Virus record (IMG/VR): IMGVR_UViG_2882284595_000003
Span: 1-64,000 of that record
DNA from: a virus
Taxonomy: Duplodnaviria > Caudoviricetes
Length of the DNA: 64,000 bases
Direction: 5' to 3' (one strand)
Shown: one piece after another, positions 2,508 to 62,707 of the stretch
Numbering within the stretch: the first letter of the stretch is position 1
Layout of the letters: every line of letters starts with the position of its first letter
The notes under the pieces: model-generated
What the model was told of the DNA's origin: nothing
The model's database searches: none
What the model saw: only the letters and a program-made list of their open reading frames with translations
Translations under genes and position numbers: made by a program

Positions 2508-4031
2508 ATGAATCGATCCCGCAACGTCCTCGAATTTCTCTACCCCATCGCACCTGACATCCAGATGCGCTTCTCGCTTCTTCAATGGCATGAGTTTGGT
2601 TACTACCTTTCCGGCGTACATGATGGCGAGGAGCTGTTCTTCCGCAAGGATGCTGCTACATTCCTCGGAGGCTGCGAGCAATTGCTGTCTAGCCCCTTTG
2701 TAGCAGCACCGCCTTTACCTTCAGTGCAGCAGCGTTTGATAGAGATTCAGATTGATGGCCTGGCAGAGGACAAGAATCCTGAGGCATATCATGCATTGCT
2801 TGCCAAAGTACGAGATGAAGGATTCGCCGTTTATACAGCCCAAGATAAGCCAAGTAGCAAGAACTGCGAACCAGGTTTTCTACTGCGCACAGGGGTGACA
2901 AAAAATCTAAGCTATTATTTTTGCCACCCTTCGATTTCTCCAGATCGCTCAAAAATCAACGCTCTAAAAGCGCGGAAGCATGAGGACAAGAATCAGGCAG
3001 GTGAAGATTGTTCTGTTATTGTACAAAGCACAGACGCATTTATTGACTTTCTGAAGACTGGTTTCTTGCCAGTTCTAGAACCTTATTGGAAGTCGAGACG
3101 CATCGAAGTTACCGCACCCTTCGAAAATTCAGACGGATACTTAAACGGATGGGCTTTTCTGCTCGGTCGGTGGTTTTATTCGGCACTTGACCTAAAATCC
3201 CCCTCTGTGGCCGTTCCATATTGGACACAAACTGAGGTGCCAAATTTTTCATTTTCAGATGGTGACGTACTGAATTGCTACGATTACAGTGTGACCCTTC
3301 AAGTCGAATCCGCAATGAAAGGTTTCCATGGTGTAGTTGTCATGAAACGATTTGATGGAAATCGCCCAGCTGGATACTTCCGCTGCCAGCAACATGCGCT
3401 GGTAAAAACACTTCAAGATGGGAACCTTGCAAGGCTTAATCCCATCCTGAATGAGTCAGCAGTACGAATCGAAAAGATGCGTGCGGAAGCTGACTTGGAT
3501 TATGTAGGTTCTCAAGCCGGAGCAGGAAAAGAAATCAGCAGCAGTCCAGCCGTAATCAACCTGTCATTTCTATATCGCAAGGCTGATGGAGTTGAAGAAA
3601 AATACGAGCTGAGTAACTGGAAAGAGCAAGGTCGTTATCTTGTCGCCACCACCCCCGCTGGGCCTCGTACTTTTCGAAAGGACCGAGTGGTTGAATACTA
3701 TGGCAATGTCAAAGCAATGCTGACAGACCCCGATTCAATAGCCCCACCGCCACCAAAACCGAAGATGGTTTCACATATCGGACCTCAGATTCTATTCACT
3801 GGATATAGCCAAGCCGAGAGAGATAGACTTGAAGCGTTGGCAAGTAGTAACGGCATGACAGTTGTTAAGTCAGTTACGCAGTCTTTGTCATATCTTTGCG
3901 GTGGCCCGAATGCCGGTCCTTCTAAAGTTGAACAGGCAAGGGAGAAAGGCGTCTGGATTTTAAATGCGGCTGCGCTTGGTGCATTACTCCAAACAGGCGA
4001 GTTACCCGATGAAGATGTGAACTTCGCTTAA
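2508..4031 (+). CDS. Protein with unknown N-terminus, WYL-like domain and C-terminal BRCT domain
   Basis: FLYRKADG...RTFRKDRV (WYL-like); ILFTG...VTQSLSYLCGGPNAGPSKVEQA (BRCT); lower GC than flanks. Confidence 0.75.
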   Translation: MNRSRNVLEFLYPIAPDIQMRFSLLQWHEFGYYLSGVHDGEELFFRKDAATFLGGCEQLLSSPFVAAPPLPSVQQRLIEIQIDGLAEDKNPEAYHALLAKVRDEGFAVYTAQDKPSSKNCEPGFLLRTGVTKNLSYYFCHPSISPDRSKINALKARKHEDKNQAGEDCSVIVQSTDAFIDFLKTGFLPVLEPYWKSRRIEVTAPFENSDGYLNGWAFLLGRWFYSALDLKSPSVAVPYWTQTEVPNFSFSDGDVLNCYDYSVTLQVESAMKGFHGVVVMKRFDGNRPAGYFRCQQHALVKTLQDGNLARLNPILNESAVRIEKMRAEADLDYVGSQAGAGKEISSSPAVINLSFLYRKADGVEEKYELSNWKEQGRYLVATTPAGPRTFRKDRVVEYYGNVKAMLTDPDSIAPPPPKPKMVSHIGPQILFTGYSQAERDRLEALASSNGMTVVKSVTQSLSYLCGGPNAGPSKVEQAREKGVWILNAAALGALLQTGELPDEDVNFA

Positions 4032-4062
4032 AATTATAACGAGTAGGGGCGCATAGGTGAAA

Positions 4063-4389
4063 TCACCTGGAAGTCCAGTGTGTTGCAAATAACGCCGCCA
4101 TGCAGACCTCACGCGGTGCGCTGATCAACAGGACTTTATGCGGGCGGGTGCTGCCGCTGACCAAACAGGACAAGGCAGCATCGAAAGCGTCCCGCACCTC
4201 ATCGCCCCGATTCATGGCGATGTCCGACACGATCTTGGCCGACTCGAACCAGTCGCGGCAGTAGTTGGGATGATGGAAGTAGGGCGCGTCCCGCACTTCG
4301 TCGGGGATGCGCCAGTAGCTGGCGGCGATGGCTTCGTTCAAGTCATCGTCGGACAGGGCGGCATATTGGTTCAGGCGGCTAAAGTCCAT
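4063..4389 (-). CDS. Small phage protein, possibly NinX/ABA-sandwich-like
   Basis: LSDDDLNEAIA and PNYCRDW motifs; GGAG RBS. Confidence 0.5.
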   Translation of the reverse strand: MDFSRLNQYAALSDDDLNEAIAASYWRIPDEVRDAPYFHHPNYCRDWFESAKIVSDIAMNRGDEVRDAFDAALSCLVSGSTRPHKVLLISAPREVCMAALFATHWTSR

Positions 4390-4486
4390 GTGAGCGCTCC
4401 GGCATTTGGATGCGCCTACTGTAGCCGCGCCGGCGGCCTGGCGGTCGGCCGCTCTGTTGTGCCGCTCCCCGATACAACTTCCGCCC

Positions 4487-4520
4487 AAAAAATAAGCGCC
4501 TCCAGCAAGAGGCGCTTTTT
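4487..4520. terminator. Intrinsic terminator after hicB
   Basis: AAGCGCCTC-cagcaa-GAGGCGCTT with A/T tracts on both sides. Confidence 0.75.
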
Positions 4521-4575
4521 CATTGCCCTGGCGGCGGTTGCGCACAGGGTTATCCACTGGCGATGGTGGACAGCC

Positions 4576-4986
4576 CTATGCGGACTGCTGAAGTTCCTTC
4601 AGCGCGGACCGAGCCAGGAAGCCGGAGCGACTGTCGTACTCAGGATGGGCGCCAACAAAGTCATCAATGCGGCGGATCAAGTTTGCCGGGAGCGTGACAT
4701 TGATCTTGGTGGCCTTGCCCAAATAGCGGGTAATGTCCACCTCCACCACTGCCCAGATAAAGCCCTGGTACTCAGGATTGGCGGAGTGGGCCTGCACCGT
4801 CCCAGCAGTGGGGATGATGGCGTCGTCCTCGTCCAGCCCCTCCAGGTGCAGGTCGATGGCCTCTTTTGCGCTGCTCATGGCTTCATCCAGGGTATCACCC
4901 GCGGAGAAGCACCCTGGGATATCTGGCACGATCACGCCGTAGGCGTGGTCGGCGTCGCCCGGCTCGATGGCGATTGGAAACAACAT
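4576..4986 (-). CDS. hicB: HicB antitoxin
   Basis: YGVIVPDIPGCFSAGDTLDEA...KINVTLP...SRSGFL; alternative start at 5064. Confidence 0.95.
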   Translation of the reverse strand: MLFPIAIEPGDADHAYGVIVPDIPGCFSAGDTLDEAMSSAKEAIDLHLEGLDEDDAIIPTAGTVQAHSANPEYQGFIWAVVEVDITRYLGKATKINVTLPANLIRRIDDFVGAHPEYDSRSGFLARSALKELQQSA

Positions 4987-51223: not shown

Positions 51224-51630
51224 TGGTATCCCCGCGCCAGAGCGAAGTGCGGAAATTCGCGGAACGGCGCGCCTGGGCGGCCGTACCAGTTGAGGCCCAG
51301 CTCCATGCCGATGCGGCCGGCGGTTTGCCAAGCGGGGTGCCGGTCTTCCCACATCGGCTTGCCATTCACCAGCGGGACGATGTCGAAGGCGCGCGCGGCG
51401 GGCTTGCCGTTGATCATCACGTTGTGTTCGGACTGGCCGCCTTTGGCATTGGTGACGCGCGGGCCAGGATTGCCGTTACGGCCCTGGGCGTAGAGCTGGT
51501 CCTGCTCGGCCGGCGAGCGCCAGGTGCAGGTGATGAGGATGTCGAGGCCGGCAGCCTGGCAGCGCTGCAGGAACGTCCGGCAAAGCGGCTGCAGGTCCGG
51601 GTGAAGGTCTTCGATCTTGCGGCTGGGCAT
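51220..51630 (-). CDS. M15-family peptidase endolysin
   Basis: RS.AEQ..LYAQGR...VTNA..GQS.HN...AFD...E.PHF. Confidence 0.93.
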   Translation of the reverse strand: MPSRKIEDLHPDLQPLCRTFLQRCQAAGLDILITCTWRSPAEQDQLYAQGRNGNPGPRVTNAKGGQSEHNVMINGKPAARAFDIVPLVNGKPMWEDRHPAWQTAGRIGMELGLNWYGRPGAPFREFPHFALARGYQ

Positions 51631-51663
51631 GGTTCCCTCCTGTCAAAATGAAACATGCCACCC

Positions 51664-51708
51664 ATTGTGGGGTGGCATGTTTGGAGGGGCGTTTAATGCG
51701 CTTTAAAG
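51664..51708 (-). promoter_or_regulatory. Late promoter (Plys equivalent)
   Basis: CTTTAAAGCGCATTAAAC-21 bp-CACAAT. Confidence 0.7.
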
Positions 51709-51736
51709 CATGGACTTACAGGGCAGAAATGGCTTG

Positions 51737-52549
51737 CTAGGTTGATTTCTTGCAATGCGCAGGTTTGGCTTGCTCTACTATTTGCCCGGTTTGCTTATCA
51801 ACGTCATACACAGTCAAGCATTCTCGTCCGCCGAATTTCTTTTTCAGCTCAGCATCTTCTGCGGCGACAGCCGATTTGATTTGACTATCCGTTGCGCGAA
51901 GCTGTTGCTCACACTTCTGCTTGGCCTTGTGATAAGCCGCTTCATCCTTACGCAGGTATTTCGTACTCTCTACAGTTCTCTCTCGCGTCGCCGAATAAGA
52001 CAGCGACTGGAGCTGTAGCGCGGCATCTTGGCAATATGCAAAATGCTCACGTTGATCATCAGGCTGACGCTCTATCAAGGTCGGCCAACGTTCAAGCTCT
52101 GCTTGCAGTGGCTTCTGCACATGTTTGATGATGCCAGTGCCATCTCCTAACTGAATACCATCAATTAACGACTGTTCCGCTTCATTGATCACCCGCAAAG
52201 TGCCTTTGGCAAACTGCCGGGCTTCGGTCAGCCCCATCGGCTTGACATGCTCTGGTATGGCTTGCTTTGCTTCAACTTGTGTGAGCTTTTTCTGACTGGG
52301 AGCAGATGCAACAGTAGGTGCCGTCGATTCCTGGAGAGTGGATGCCGTTGAAGCGCCTTCCGGGGCGAAAAAACCTGCTGCTACTAGCGCAACTAATGAC
52401 AGCATTCCCCCACCCAGCAAAAAGTGAAGCCGCTTTGGCACTTCCTCCGTTTTTTTTCCTTTGAATAAGGATGGGGCAACCGTGCCAATGATCGCTATCA
52501 GTGAAAAAAACAAGCCGATCAGCCCAAAAATACTTGCCACCATAGACAT
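51737..52549 (-). CDS. Membrane-anchored hypothetical protein
   Basis: Two N-terminal TM segments; soluble domain with four Cys; lower GC. Confidence 0.8.
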   Translation of the reverse strand: MSMVASIFGLIGLFFSLIAIIGTVAPSLFKGKKTEEVPKRLHFLLGGGMLSLVALVAAGFFAPEGASTASTLQESTAPTVASAPSQKKLTQVEAKQAIPEHVKPMGLTEARQFAKGTLRVINEAEQSLIDGIQLGDGTGIIKHVQKPLQAELERWPTLIERQPDDQREHFAYCQDAALQLQSLSYSATRERTVESTKYLRKDEAAYHKAKQKCEQQLRATDSQIKSAVAAEDAELKKKFGGRECLTVYDVDKQTGQIVEQAKPAHCKKST

Positions 52550-52649
52550 GGACCTCTCCCGACATGAGTAGTATTAGGAAACCTGCTGATGAACGCAGCA
52601 GGTTAGGTTTCATACGAATACCGCAACAGTACGGCATCTGGGAACAGAC

Positions 52650-53405
52650 TCAGCGTTTGCGCAGCTTATGGGCAACGTGCAATGGTTGCCAATATGCCAC
52701 TTGACCATTCTGGCCTGCTAAACACTGGATGTCTGGCGCATTTGGAAAGTCGATAATGCTGCCCAGCCGATACATTTGGCCTTGGTAGTTGCACTCATGC
52801 TGCTGACTCTGCAACTGCGCCTTAAGCGCGCTGGCCTGGGCTGATGAAGTATGGCTTAGATAGCCTAGGGAAATTGAAATCCCTATTGCCAGCACACTGA
52901 TGGCAATCAAAACTTTCACACTGCGCTGCGCTTCGCTTAATGCCTGGGCACTGGCCACGCAATCCTCGCAAACAGTCTTATACCTGAGAGCCGGCTGCGT
53001 ATAAGCGCTATAAGATGGCGCGGCTACATCATTGGCCGTTTTTTTGCTGGCCTTGTGTTCTGCAGCGTAAATTTCTTTCTTTAGCCAGCTATAGGCTTCT
53101 CGGAACCACTCAATCGGCAAGTCTTTGTACATCTTGCCGTGGAACTGGTTGGAAAAGCTGCGCCATACTTTTTCCATGTCACGTCCGCTGGCATTGGCAA
53201 GTTGCCGTACTAAATCCCGTATTTCATTTTGTTGTTGGAGTGTTAGCAGTTCCCCTGAGAGCAACTCTTCTCCACTACGGTCAACGTGGAGATTAATCAC
53301 GTTATTATTATTGAAAAACGGGGATTGATTGGTGATATCCCCGTTAATGTTTTGCTCGTTGTAGTCGTTCTGGGCTACTCGATTGTTACTGCCCTCGGTC
53401 TTCAT
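52650..53405 (-). CDS. Single-pass membrane protein with Asn-rich N-terminus
   Basis: ATG at 53405 with AAGGA RBS overlapping the repressor end; TM VLIAISVLAIGISISLGYL; C-terminal CNYQGQMY..G..I. Confidence 0.75.
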   Translation of the reverse strand: MKTEGSNNRVAQNDYNEQNINGDITNQSPFFNNNNVINLHVDRSGEELLSGELLTLQQQNEIRDLVRQLANASGRDMEKVWRSFSNQFHGKMYKDLPIEWFREAYSWLKKEIYAAEHKASKKTANDVAAPSYSAYTQPALRYKTVCEDCVASAQALSEAQRSVKVLIAISVLAIGISISLGYLSHTSSAQASALKAQLQSQQHECNYQGQMYRLGSIIDFPNAPDIQCLAGQNGQVAYWQPLHVAHKLRKR

Positions 53406-53862
53406 CGTCCTTGCTGCCTTTCGCACCGTGATACTCGCGGTAATTCTGGCCAGCCACCCGGTTGCCAGAACCACTCACGACAATTCCCTTGGCATTATCA
53501 TCGCACGGGACTGTACTAACTGGCACTGACCTAAGGGCTAGTTTCGTGACGGCTTTGGCCAACTGGTTGGCATCCACCTTCTTTTCCAACGACAGCAAAT
53601 CGATCGCGTCCAGCACCGCTTGATGGACAGCGGATTCGCCTATGCCCTGGCCTTGGCGTTGGCCTAGAAGGACATATTGCACATCAACGCCAGCTGCCGC
53701 CAAAGCTGCCAGCTGTACGGCTGTTGGAGATGAAACCCCTTTTTCCCAGTCGACAAGAGTACGCCTCTTCGCGCCTGCCTTATCTGCAAAAACCTCTTGC
53801 GTAAGGCCGAGACGTTCACGCTCTTCTTTGAGTCTCAACTCAATCAAAGTGCAAATCTCCAC
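53386..53862 (-). CDS. XRE-family repressor of the transposable phage
   Basis: RLKEERERLGLTQ..FA...WEKG.SSP...GVDVQYVL.G. Confidence 0.92.
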   Translation of the reverse strand: MEICTLIELRLKEERERLGLTQEVFADKAGAKRRTLVDWEKGVSSPTAVQLAALAAAGVDVQYVLLGQRQGQGIGESAVHQAVLDAIDLLSLEKKVDANQLAKAVTKLALRSVPVSTVPCDDNAKGIVVSGSGNRVAGQNYREYHGAKGSKDDEDRGQ

Positions 53863-53902
53863 TCAAAATAATGTTGACATGTGCAGATTTCTGCACAATA
53901 CT
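53848..53902 (+). promoter_or_regulatory. Early promoter with repressor operators
   Basis: TTGACA(53874)-17 bp-AATACT; palindrome TGTGCAGA-TT-TCTGCACA (53880-53897); related site at 53848-53863. Confidence 0.75.
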
Positions 53903-53982
53903 CAACTCACACCGTCCCACCACGAACGGCAACTTAAGCGGCACTCTCCCAAGCGCCGCCGCCCCTTGAATAGGAGCTAACC

Positions 53983-54225
53983 ATGCAACTACGTACCCCA
54001 GCCCAGGCTCGCAAGGAGCTTCAGGACAAAGGGATTTCTATTACCCAATGGGCCATCGCCAACAAGTTCTCGCCCAACCTGGTTTTTGAAGTCTTGGGCG
54101 GCCGCAAGAAGTGCGTGCGCGGCCAAGCTCATGAGATCGCAGTCAAGTTGGGCATCAAGGCTGGTGAAATCTGCACCGACCCGGCCAATGCCTTGGCTCA
54201 GTCCCGTCGCCGCGTCGCAGCGTGA
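53983..54225 (+). CDS. Ner/Cro-like DNA-binding protein (BcepMu gp16 family)
   Basis: RTP.Q.R......G.SI..WA...V..VL.GR....RG.AH.IAVKLG.K. Confidence 0.88.
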   Translation: MQLRTPAQARKELQDKGISITQWAIANKFSPNLVFEVLGGRKKCVRGQAHEIAVKLGIKAGEICTDPANALAQSRRRVAA

Positions 54226-54473
54226 GGCCCGCCATGACTAAGTCACTACTTACTGATTCACACGAACCCGGCGCCATCCAAACCAGCATCGACGCGCTGT
54301 TTCTGCCTGAATCCCTGACCTCGCTACGCGCTCAGTCGGCTTTACGGCAGAGGCTAGAGCTAACTGCCGCGCAACACGAAGAGGCGGAACGCCTGTCTCC
54401 GTACCTGGGCATCAGCGTGCAGCAGGTTTACCGCAGACTGCGCTCCGGCGAGCTGTCCTTAACCTCCAAGTAA
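54222..54473 (+). CDS. Hypothetical protein with possible HTH
   Basis: GTGA overlap; LGISVQQVYRRL. Confidence 0.55.
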   Translation: MRPAMTKSLLTDSHEPGAIQTSIDALFLPESLTSLRAQSALRQRLELTAAQHEEAERLSPYLGISVQQVYRRLRSGELSLTSK

Positions 54474-62030: not shown

Positions 62031-62104
62031 AGCGAAACCGCGCACATAGAAATATGTGTGCGGTCTGCCCGGCGTGGTTGCCGGGTACTGATGAGCAGCC
62101 AACG

Positions 62105-62707
62105 ATGAACGCAAAGACTCAAGACCGACAGCGATTGATCCGCCTGATCCACGTAGCCAAGCGTGATCTGGCCCTGGATGACGACAGCTACCGAGCCATT
62201 CTCCAGCGGATTGGAAAGAAGGCATCCGCGGCTGACCTGGCCGTTCCAGAGCTAAACCAGGTGTTGGAATACCTGAAGCGCAGCGGATTCAAGGTGCGTT
62301 CCAAAGCGCAGCCCGCCACTCAGTCGCGTCCGCTGGCTCAGGACGAGCAGCACAAGAAGATACGCGCGCTGTGGTTGTTTCTGCATCAGATCGGCGTGGT
62401 CAAGAACCCCGCCGAGAGCGCGCTGGCCGCGTATGTAAAGCGGATTACCGGGCGCGATGCTATGCAGTGGCTGGCCGGAGATCAACTGGAGCAGGTGATC
62501 GAATCATTGAAGAAGTGGGCGATGCGTTCGCTGCCCGATTTGGTACAGAAGCTGGCGGCCGAGGTGCAACACCTTCCGCTGACAGCTACGCAGCGCAACG
62601 AGCTAAACCAGCGGATGGCTACGGCCATGGCGCGCAAGACGTTCGAGCCAATGTTGAGCGCCTGGGAAGGTCTGACCGCCACCCTCAAGGCGAAGGAGAA
62701 AGCATGA
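62105..62707 (+). CDS. gemA: GemA/gp16-family protein
   Basis: LIHVAK..L.LDDD.YR..L...KIRALW. Confidence 0.9.
   Translation: MNAKTQDRQRLIRLIHVAKRDLALDDDSYRAILQRIGKKASAADLAVPELNQVLEYLKRSGFKVRSKAQPATQSRPLAQDEQHKKIRALWLFLHQIGVVKNPAESALAAYVKRITGRDAMQWLAGDQLEQVIESLKKWAMRSLPDLVQKLAAEVQHLPLTATQRNELNQRMATAMARKTFEPMLSAWEGLTATLKAKEKA

Follow-up and report, generated by a model that had tools for sequence, protein, structure and literature searches.

A matched tag at the facing termini of a prophage repressor and a membrane protein

We analyzed a 64,000-nucleotide stretch of viral DNA (positions 1 to 64,000 of IMG/VR record IMGVR_UViG_2882284595_000003, here called the window), which we assign by its sequence to a BcepMu-like prophage of Chromobacterium sphagni. 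In its immunity region, a gene for an XRE/HTH_3-type repressor with a helix-turn-helix (HTH) domain is followed by an overlapping gene for a membrane protein, and the C-terminal tail of the repressor and the N-terminus of the membrane protein carry a short matched tag. Comparison of related loci showed that such tags are translated, lie at facing termini, are conserved, covary between cognate partners, and travel together in recombinants. The observation generalizes to a conserved repressor/membrane-protein tag system, which suggests that lysogeny control is physically tied to the cell membrane in a way not described before. Most likely, repressor and membrane protein are coupled by homotypic beta-strand pairing of their tags. 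The elements of the pair that bear on this finding are as follows.

53386 to 53862, minus strand: prophage repressor gene, XRE/HTH_3 type, 158 amino acids, in the position of BcepMu gp17 (open reading frame [ORF] list, Pfam, PHROGs)
53692 to 53835, minus strand: repressor helix-turn-helix DNA-binding domain, residues 10-57 (HTH_3, E 4e-10; P22 C2 and 434 N-terminal domains)
53434 to 53484, minus strand: repressor tail tag, residues 127-143, IVVSGSGNRVAGQNYRE (repressor alignment, codon comparison)
53389 to 53433, minus strand: 15 post-tag repressor residues, charged and Gly/Lys-rich (sequence)
53386 to 53405, minus strand: overlap of repressor stop and membrane-protein start, 20 nucleotides (ORF list)
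52650 to 53405, minus strand: membrane protein gene, 251 amino acids, phrog_6521/BcepMu gp18 family (PHROGs, profile search)
53355 to 53405, minus strand: N-terminal tag of the membrane protein, residues 1-17 (homologue starts, codon comparison)

Residues 131-143 of the repressor, near its C-terminus, read GSGNRVAGQNYRE. The membrane protein, translated from an ATG at 53405, begins MKTEGSNNRVAQNDYNE (MKTEGS...) and carries GSNNRVAQNDYNE at residues 5-17. The two segments are identical at 8 of 13 positions, as a preliminary description of this locus had reported in the form GSxNRVAxxxYxE; the overlap of the two genes that it had noted is likewise real and amounts to 20 nucleotides. Its claim that the NRVA codons differ synonymously also held, with all four differing at the third base (AAC CGG GTG GCT versus AAT CGA GTA GCC). 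It had placed the motif at the very end of the repressor (...NYRE), which is wrong: 15 further residues follow (YHGAKGSKDDEDRGQ), whose codons overlap the membrane-protein gene's start and ribosome-binding region. In relatives, the repressor/membrane-protein junction is a 4-nucleotide overlap or a short gap, and 5-20 mostly basic residues follow the repressor motif across loci. The two motif coding stretches have 22 of 45 nucleotides in common, and a repeat search across both found no direct DNA repeat. Smith-Waterman alignment of tail and tag gave a score of 40, compared to 20.0 ± 4.0 for shuffled sequences, and this score was reached by 16 of 20,000 shuffles. Taken alone, the window match is suggestive, not compelling, and the comparative data decide.

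The match depends on where translation of the membrane protein begins, and the preliminary description had allowed for a true start downstream of the motif. The ORF (52650 to 53474) opens at a GTG, and the ATG at 53405 gives the 251-amino-acid product. Homologues P0006 and P0007 (52% and 51% identical, respectively) have their start at the corresponding position and open with a motif of this kind, whereas the next in-frame Met is residue 77, within conserved sequence. By these homologue starts, the start lies upstream of the motif.

Covariation of tail and tag between cognate partners

Loci (designated L plus a number) were collected through the membrane protein by viral scans, a genome scan, and a family-level genome search, and through the repressor by one scan. 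We dropped L004, L015, L016, L018-L020, and L026 as duplicates of the window's or known loci, as well as the orphan L021, the truncated L034, and the loci L064, L065, and L067. The covariation set comprised 99 Mu-like and P2-like prophage loci with 85 distinct tail/tag pairs, which were grouped into 21 motif types by single linkage of pairs, with one representative taken per type.

With the 21 types, the sum of cognate Smith-Waterman scores was 914, compared to 580 ± 42 when partners were permuted (z = 8.0, p ≤ 1e-5); grouping into 8 coarse types gave a cognate sum of 283 versus 194 ± 21 (z = 4.2, p = 3.7e-4). Shared composition or a bias in guanine-plus-cytosine (GC) content was rejected as the cause of this excess, since four control segment pairs from the same proteins showed none (z from -0.6 to 1.3). 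In a joint alignment, identity was 36% between cognate partners versus 24% between non-cognate ones. When repressor and membrane-protein profiles were compared with each other, only the tail columns aligned with the tag columns (E from 1.2e-4 to 1.5e-4, probability 51-55%). Motif co-variation in homologues, the check that the preliminary description had proposed, was therefore found, together with co-occurrence of the motifs in nearly all related loci.

Cognate alignments contain 196 identical residues, and the same codon is used at 72 of them versus 82.8 expected (z = -1.6). Recent duplication or gene conversion was rejected on these grounds, as there is neither an excess of codon identity nor a DNA repeat. 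The lack of such an excess indicates that the likeness did not arise by recent copying but is maintained in the proteins themselves, which supports the earlier proposal of protein-level selection over recent duplication.

Rare variants are common to both partners within a locus. L150, one fetched relative of the window's rare subtype, has NRTA in both proteins where both window proteins have NRVA (repressor ...SGNNNRTAGRDYDE, membrane protein ...EGEGNRTAGEVYIE), and both protein bodies are divergent. His replaces Gln in both tags of L039, and a QN(I/V)(Y/F)GN form is common to both tags in L035, L042, and L050. Recombinants separate the tags from the bodies of the proteins that carry them: the repressors of the window and L022 are 84% identical in their bodies and 22% in their tails, and those of L011 and L027 are 89% and 28% identical, respectively; conversely, L024 and L011 have repressor bodies that are only 30% identical, with tails 72% and tags 64% identical.

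In the repressor-centered scan, 22 of 24 loci were assessable, and the tagged gene had the best-matching downstream N-terminus in 15 of the 22. It was the next gene in 14 of these and the second gene downstream in the remaining one (L130).

From the aligned sequences, the general tag may be written as Q-x-F-x-G-x-V-G-Q-x-V-x-G-D-V followed by a second short strand, approximately 20 and up to approximately 35 residues in all. The window appears as a divergent, rare subtype of it, (V)-x-G-x-x-N-R-V-A-x-x-x-Y-x-E. A word-index search returned 3 proteins as close relatives of this subtype, and two metagenome scans for such relatives gave nothing useful. Beta-strand pairing is suggested by the alternating hydrophobic residues with Gly/Asn/Asp turns, by the enrichment of G, N, V, and Q, and by the second short strand present in both partners. 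In the membrane proteins, the first 30 residues compare with the rest of the protein as 11.1 versus 5.9% for G, 10.2 versus 3.1% for N, and 11.5 versus 6.2% for V.

Distribution of the module

An exhaustive profile search with the membrane protein returned 373 cluster representatives (50% identity) at E ≤ 1e-3, of which 169 reached E ≤ 1e-10 and 43 reached E ≤ 1e-30. Judged by eye, most of the best 150 representatives start with such a tag, and a loose core pattern was present within the first 60 residues in 103 of 151 representatives. Among the loci fetched through the membrane protein as L035-L113, an HTH repressor-like ORF lies upstream in 76 of 79; of the other three, two lie at the end of a contig, and the third is a repressor tail itself. 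The Mu-like and P2-like carriers come from Burkholderia, Ralstonia, Chromobacterium, and Collimonas. In genomes the module is sporadic, occurring in 5 of 68 sampled at the family level, 9 of 401 at the order level, and 1 of 400 at the class level, the last being the window's own host.

The module was seen in phages BcepMu, phiE255, KS5 (gp11/gp12), AP3, phiE202, phiE52237, and phiRSA1. BcepMu gp17/gp18 and phiE255 have the same arrangement with a different motif, which is again matched between tail and N-terminus. The pairs BcepMu gp17/gp18, phiE255 gp46/gp47, KS5 gp11/gp12, and phiRSA1 ORF35/ORF33 are homologous to the window pair and occupy the same place in the immunity region; their records name the genes only, and the tag is not annotated. 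The window differs from BcepMu-type pairs by its rare tag subtype and low-GC cassette. As far as the available part of the KS5 paper goes, gene 11 is listed as repressor and gene 12 as membrane protein, with nothing more. No earlier description of the shared tag was found in the literature outside subscription journals, and hence outside the first report on BcepMu (Summer et al. 2004).

Homologues of the membrane protein are annotated as 'membrane protein', 'hypothetical' or, wrongly, 'alpha/beta hydrolase'; the last label is attached to tagged homologues in the GenBank records of AP3, vB_SR4, vB_E555, and other phages. No hydrolase family was found among 90 relatives, so this label is probably a propagated misannotation.

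Domain organization of the two partners

HTH_3 is the sole Pfam domain of the repressor (E 4e-10), and its N-terminal domain resembles the structures of P22 C2 (E 1.3e-8) and the 434 repressor. The gene is divergent from a cro/ner-like gene in what is a temperate-phage immunity region, as is characteristic of an XRE/434-type repressor. In agreement with the preliminary description, no S24 peptidase match was detected by Pfam (E ≤ 0.1), which places the protein outside the cleavable LexA/lambda cI class. In an alignment of 31 repressors only three columns are invariant, and one of these is G131 in the tail.

The membrane protein consists, in order, of the tag, an Asn-rich stretch, a helical domain, a CxxC at residues 146-149, one transmembrane (TM) segment at approximately residues 163-183, and a C-terminal part. 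Alignment and hydrophobicity bear out the organization given in the preliminary description, namely an Asn-rich stretch, a helical domain, one TM helix, and a Cys-containing C-terminal domain. The segments that follow the tag are as follows.

53283 to 53354, minus strand: Asn/Gln-rich extension of the tag region, residues 18-41, with a conserved NxNV(I/V)NL strand (alignment)
53061 to 53273, minus strand: cytoplasmic helical domain, residues 45-115, with sub-threshold likeness to Flk and the Ant phrog (PHROGs, alignment)
52959 to 52970, minus strand: juxtamembrane CxxC, C146-E-D-C149 (sequence, alignment)
52857 to 52919, minus strand: single TM segment, residues 163-183 (crude hydrophobicity scan)
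52653 to 52856, minus strand: C-terminal, presumably periplasmic domain with conserved C205, C228, and W239 (alignment)

The protein matches phrog_6521 'membrane protein' (E 1.1e-24), a family that 89 of 90 relatives match as well. Its full-length match, TM segment, and C...C...W domain place it in the phrog_6521/BcepMu gp18 family, although it is only 25.5-29% identical to the BcepMu and phiE255 counterparts. A TM segment is present in 146 of 151 representatives, and at least 2 Cys residues follow it in 138 of 151. Pfam gave nothing significant for the window protein and only weak DUF1496 and coiled-coil matches for the 90 relatives, the C-terminal domain being weakly DUF1496-like in these. 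A search of solved structures with the membrane protein found none, the best match (E 0.049) being a designed coiled coil. A match to phrog_245 (Ant) at E 6.3e-6 covers residues 54-160 only, is sub-threshold, and recurs in 1 of 90 relatives; Pfam found no Ant domain in the membrane protein.

The Flk model matched the helical domain at E 2.5e-3 in the window protein and at E 6e-5 in the second tagged protein of L130; the scores, 17.2 and 22 bits, with 14.4 bits in a further comparison, are far below the NCBIfam cut-off of 353 for Flk. Flk_N occurs in 10% of the nearest Atlas cluster. Flk is a flagellar regulator and a C-terminally anchored inner-membrane protein, and the membrane protein resembles it in having a cytoplasmic domain followed by a C-terminal TM anchor. 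To our knowledge, Flk has no tag and no relation to phage repressors, and we regard this sub-threshold likeness as a lead only. Elsewhere in the window, the Flk model also weakly matches a 217-amino-acid ORF at 62054 to 62707 on the plus strand, again below threshold (E 7.2e-4).

Modularity of the tag

The tag is found at the head of several kinds of protein. It heads small two-TM proteins (L133, L134, L126, and protein 3 of L130), a zinc-ribbon TM protein (L005), and a 182-amino-acid TM protein (L132), and in protein 2 of L130 it is joined to a helical domain without a TM segment. L130 and L005 each encode three tagged proteins. In L130 (2468 to 4037), a tagged repressor, a tag-helical-domain protein, and a two-TM protein lie in a row, all with the VAGRDI subtype. 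BcepMu-type membrane proteins have a tandem double tag (L007 2357 to 2480; L057, L058, and L061; G002:C3:279817-280008), and in these loci the repressor tail resembles the first of the two.

The tail/tag match also persists where the two genes are not neighbors. A gene for a secreted protein with a signal peptide is inserted between them in L036, L038, L046, L050, and L052, and in phiRSA1 (L160 175 to 1395) the regulator ORF35 is separated from the tagged membrane protein ORF33 by the insertion sequence transposase ORF34. In L159 (3497 to 4887), the tag is intact in an orphan membrane-protein gene whose neighbors are an integrase fragment and host genes; this locus has the appearance of a P2-like prophage in decay, with its repressor lost.

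A hidden Markov model (HMM) of the tag, run against three host genomes, found only membrane-protein N-termini and no further tagged protein. HMM and motif scans of the window for a third tagged partner returned only the two genes.

Comparison with amyloid signaling pairs

The preliminary description likened the pair to amyloid signaling pairs, in which the products of adjacent genes have a short motif in common. We compared it with HET-s/NWD2, a fungal pair of this kind, and, from excerpts of the literature, with the bacterial Bell/NLR pairs BASS1-10 and the Escherichia coli pair Bab/Agp (BASS11). As far as these excerpts go, the tag system is like the amyloid pairs in that a short motif is common to the products of adjacent genes and is C-terminal in one partner and N-terminal in the other. 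It is further like them in its richness in Gly, Asn, Gln, and hydrophobic residues, in exchangeable partner domains and sometimes doubled motifs, and in having one partner at the membrane and the pair within a prophage. By the same excerpts, the partners differ: an XRE repressor and single- or double-pass membrane proteins here, versus an NLR/TPR sensor and a Bell, HeLo, or Bab effector in the amyloid pairs. So does the context, which is a lysogeny switch here versus a defense island there, and the G-phi-Q-phi-G signature of BASS3/RHIM is not evident in the tag system when compared from sequence alone. The analogy thus stands for gene adjacency, terminal position, and composition, and fails for the partner domains, with no NLR, Bell, or HeLo domain found by Pfam in the window pair and 90 relatives. 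Term searches of the available text of three amyloid-signaling sources (the Bab/Agp preprint, Dyrka et al. 2020, and a 2025 deep-learning paper) found no role for a repressor or HTH protein.

How the tag may act on the lysogeny switch

We tentatively favor a reading, quite possibly correct, in which the co-transcribed membrane partner captures or titrates the repressor. Both proteins come from one transcript; the membrane protein would capture the repressor tail at the inner membrane, and the state of its helical, TM, and periplasmic Cys-containing parts would set the withdrawal, inactivation, or release of the repressor. It may act as a membrane-anchored, immunity-specific anti-repressor or titrator, and tag capture would offer an inactivation route for a repressor without a LexA-type self-cleavage domain. 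In the available part of the Bab/Agp preprint (E. coli, BASS11), the sensor motif is N-terminal and the effector motif C-terminal; by analogy, this polarity would favor the membrane protein acting on the repressor. The mechanism given in the preliminary description, in which a membrane sensor sequesters or tunes the repressor by homotypic beta-strand co-assembly to give SOS-independent induction, is plausible but unproven. A more elaborate version, modeled on amyloid signaling, is distinctly unlikely: an envelope or redox cue, received through the Cys-containing outer domain of the membrane protein, would prompt this protein to nucleate a cross-beta structure at its tag that propagates to the whole repressor pool, resulting in all-or-none, SOS-independent derepression. 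Were it correct, the covarying tag subtypes would serve as immunity barcodes that prevent cross-induction of co-resident heteroimmune prophages.

Several observations weigh against capture of the repressor by the membrane protein or weaken the case for it. The tagged partners are diverse membrane proteins, some without a periplasmic domain, and this diversity fits an effector or anchor better than a dedicated sensor. In a figure legend of the Dyrka et al. 2020 preprint, double motifs are on the effector side of BASS pairs, and here they are on the membrane protein, which would suggest the opposite direction of action. Tail and tag are coded approximately 80-250 bp apart, so that their co-segregation in recombinants is also expected from linkage alone; only the cognate similarity excess, not co-segregation, argues for coupling. 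In 7 of the 22 assessable loci of the repressor-centered scan (motif types L118/L128 and L120-L124), tail/tag likeness is generic, at the Smith-Waterman noise level, and L005, L006, and L023 rank poorly in the permutation matrix. When the repressor tail was compared with all 901 window ORF segments, equal or higher scores occurred elsewhere (44, 44, and 43), and the general tag HMM misses the window's repressor tail.

The direction of action may also be reversed, with repressor tails as the trigger and tagged membrane proteins as effectors of abortive infection, exclusion, or permeabilization, which we consider somewhat unlikely. Clustered or unfolded repressor tails would template the membrane protein's tag, as in HET-S/NWD2 or Bab/Agp. 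Such a scheme would account for the tagging of several unrelated small membrane proteins, as with amyloid-signaling effectors, and for the location of the genes in a moron slot of the immunity region, comparable to that in which rexAB follows cI in lambda. It would also agree with the tandem tags on the membrane-protein side, given the double motifs on the Bell/effector side, and with Bab/Agp as a case, in the available text, of amyloid signaling in a proteobacterial abortive infection system at prophage hotspots. However, the polarity would be opposite to that of known pairs, for which the same sources give a C-terminal motif in the effector and an N-terminal one in the sensor, and a repressor that is constitutive in lysogens would need extra control to act as a trigger. 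Moreover, PADLOC assigned the membrane protein and the third gene of the strand block to zero defense-system families, and the periplasmic Cys domain, conserved in 138 of 151 representatives, would have no obvious role in a pure effector.

Alternatively, both tags may bind a common third site and not each other, which appears improbable. The receptor could be the membrane protein's own helical domain, the tag being an intramolecular mimic that competes with the tail, or else a factor of the phage or the host, for example a chaperone or a protease adaptor. Two peptides co-evolving with one receptor surface would covary equally, a helical domain follows the tag in most partners (without a TM segment in protein 2 of L130), and the C-terminal tails of Mu-type repressors are known to govern ClpXP degradation. 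Against the helical domain as receptor, L133, L126, and the zinc-ribbon protein of L005 are tagged but lack this domain; against a host factor, the fast turnover of subtypes among one host's phages would be left unexplained, and no other tagged protein was found by the tag HMM in the three host genomes or the window.

Very improbably, there is no functional link at all, and the segments stem from an old local duplication and are kept separately, one for repressor oligomerization or as a spacer and the other for translation initiation or membrane targeting: the unexceptional rank of the match among window ORFs, the merely generic likeness in some motif types, and the constraint that the overlapping ribosome-binding site and start place on the extreme repressor C-terminus would suit this, but it is contradicted by the cognate-specific excess (z = 8) that control segments lack, by rare variants common to both partners within loci, by codon identity that is not in excess despite high residue identity, by a match that holds in Mu-like and P2-like phages alike and persists where other genes are inserted, and by the invariance of G131 in the tail.

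Capture of the repressor by a membrane partner would resemble known cases of anti-repression and repressor sequestration. Mlc is held at the membrane by PtsG, and in BlaR1/BlaI a repressor is likewise coupled to a membrane protein. We know of no report of a matched homotypic terminal motif in these systems, in Ant/Tum-type anti-repressors, or in Qtip of vibriophage VP882. Common to them all, and to the scheme proposed here, is the withdrawal or inactivation of a repressor without LexA-type cleavage.

In many temperate phages the repressor has no LexA-like cleavage domain, and their induction is mostly unexplained. A covarying repressor/membrane-protein tag gives a concrete, easily testable handle on the induction of such non-cleavable repressors, and the tag would determine specificity while recombining independently of the DNA-binding domain. 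The module is widespread (the 373 clusters above) though its tag is unannotated. If the pairing is amyloid-like, amyloid signaling would extend from cell death and defense to the transcriptional control of lysogeny. In the available part of a study of B. cenocepacia J2315, hydrogen peroxide raised expression of the BcepMu early operon up to approximately 10-fold, by a mechanism that its authors describe as not elucidated; we take this as a lead and not as evidence, since hydrogen peroxide also damages DNA.

Locus layout and neighboring genes

The IMG/VR record from which the window comes is a provirus record. The region of the membrane-protein match is 100% identical to a Chromobacterium sphagni contig found in the genome scan, and the Ner-like gene and membrane protein connect the window to BcepMu-like transposable phages, whose gene order, gp16 (HTH), gp17 (repressor), and gp18 (membrane protein), is identical. 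On the minus strand, the genes of the repressor, the 251-amino-acid membrane protein, and a 270-amino-acid protein are consecutive, with the Ner-like HTH gene divergent from them. The elements surrounding the tagged pair are as follows.

51737 to 52549, minus strand: third gene of the strand block, 270 amino acids, with an N-terminal TM segment (ORF list, PHROGs)
53863 to 53982, no strand assigned: divergent control region between the repressor and Ner-like genes, with one promoter-like site on the plus strand at 53874-53902 (promoter scan)
53983 to 54225, plus strand: Ner/Cro-like small HTH gene, phrog_925, homologue of BcepMu gp16, divergent from the repressor (PHROGs)

A scan of 51500-54300 with Rfam found no RNA family. 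A cassette at approximately 51600-53600, comprising the repressor tail, the membrane protein, and the third gene, has a GC content of 46-52% versus 65-68% in its flanks, which suggests that it was acquired separately from the rest of the phage.

The third gene carries no tag and matches only PHROGs without known function. A homologue of it follows the membrane protein in L005 (3253 to 3906) and has a lipoprotein-like N-terminus; in the periplasm, the product could interact with the outer domain of the membrane protein. In L005, a 283-amino-acid ORF (3971 to 4822) lies downstream of the cassette, and the gene content of this slot, which follows the immunity genes, seems to vary.

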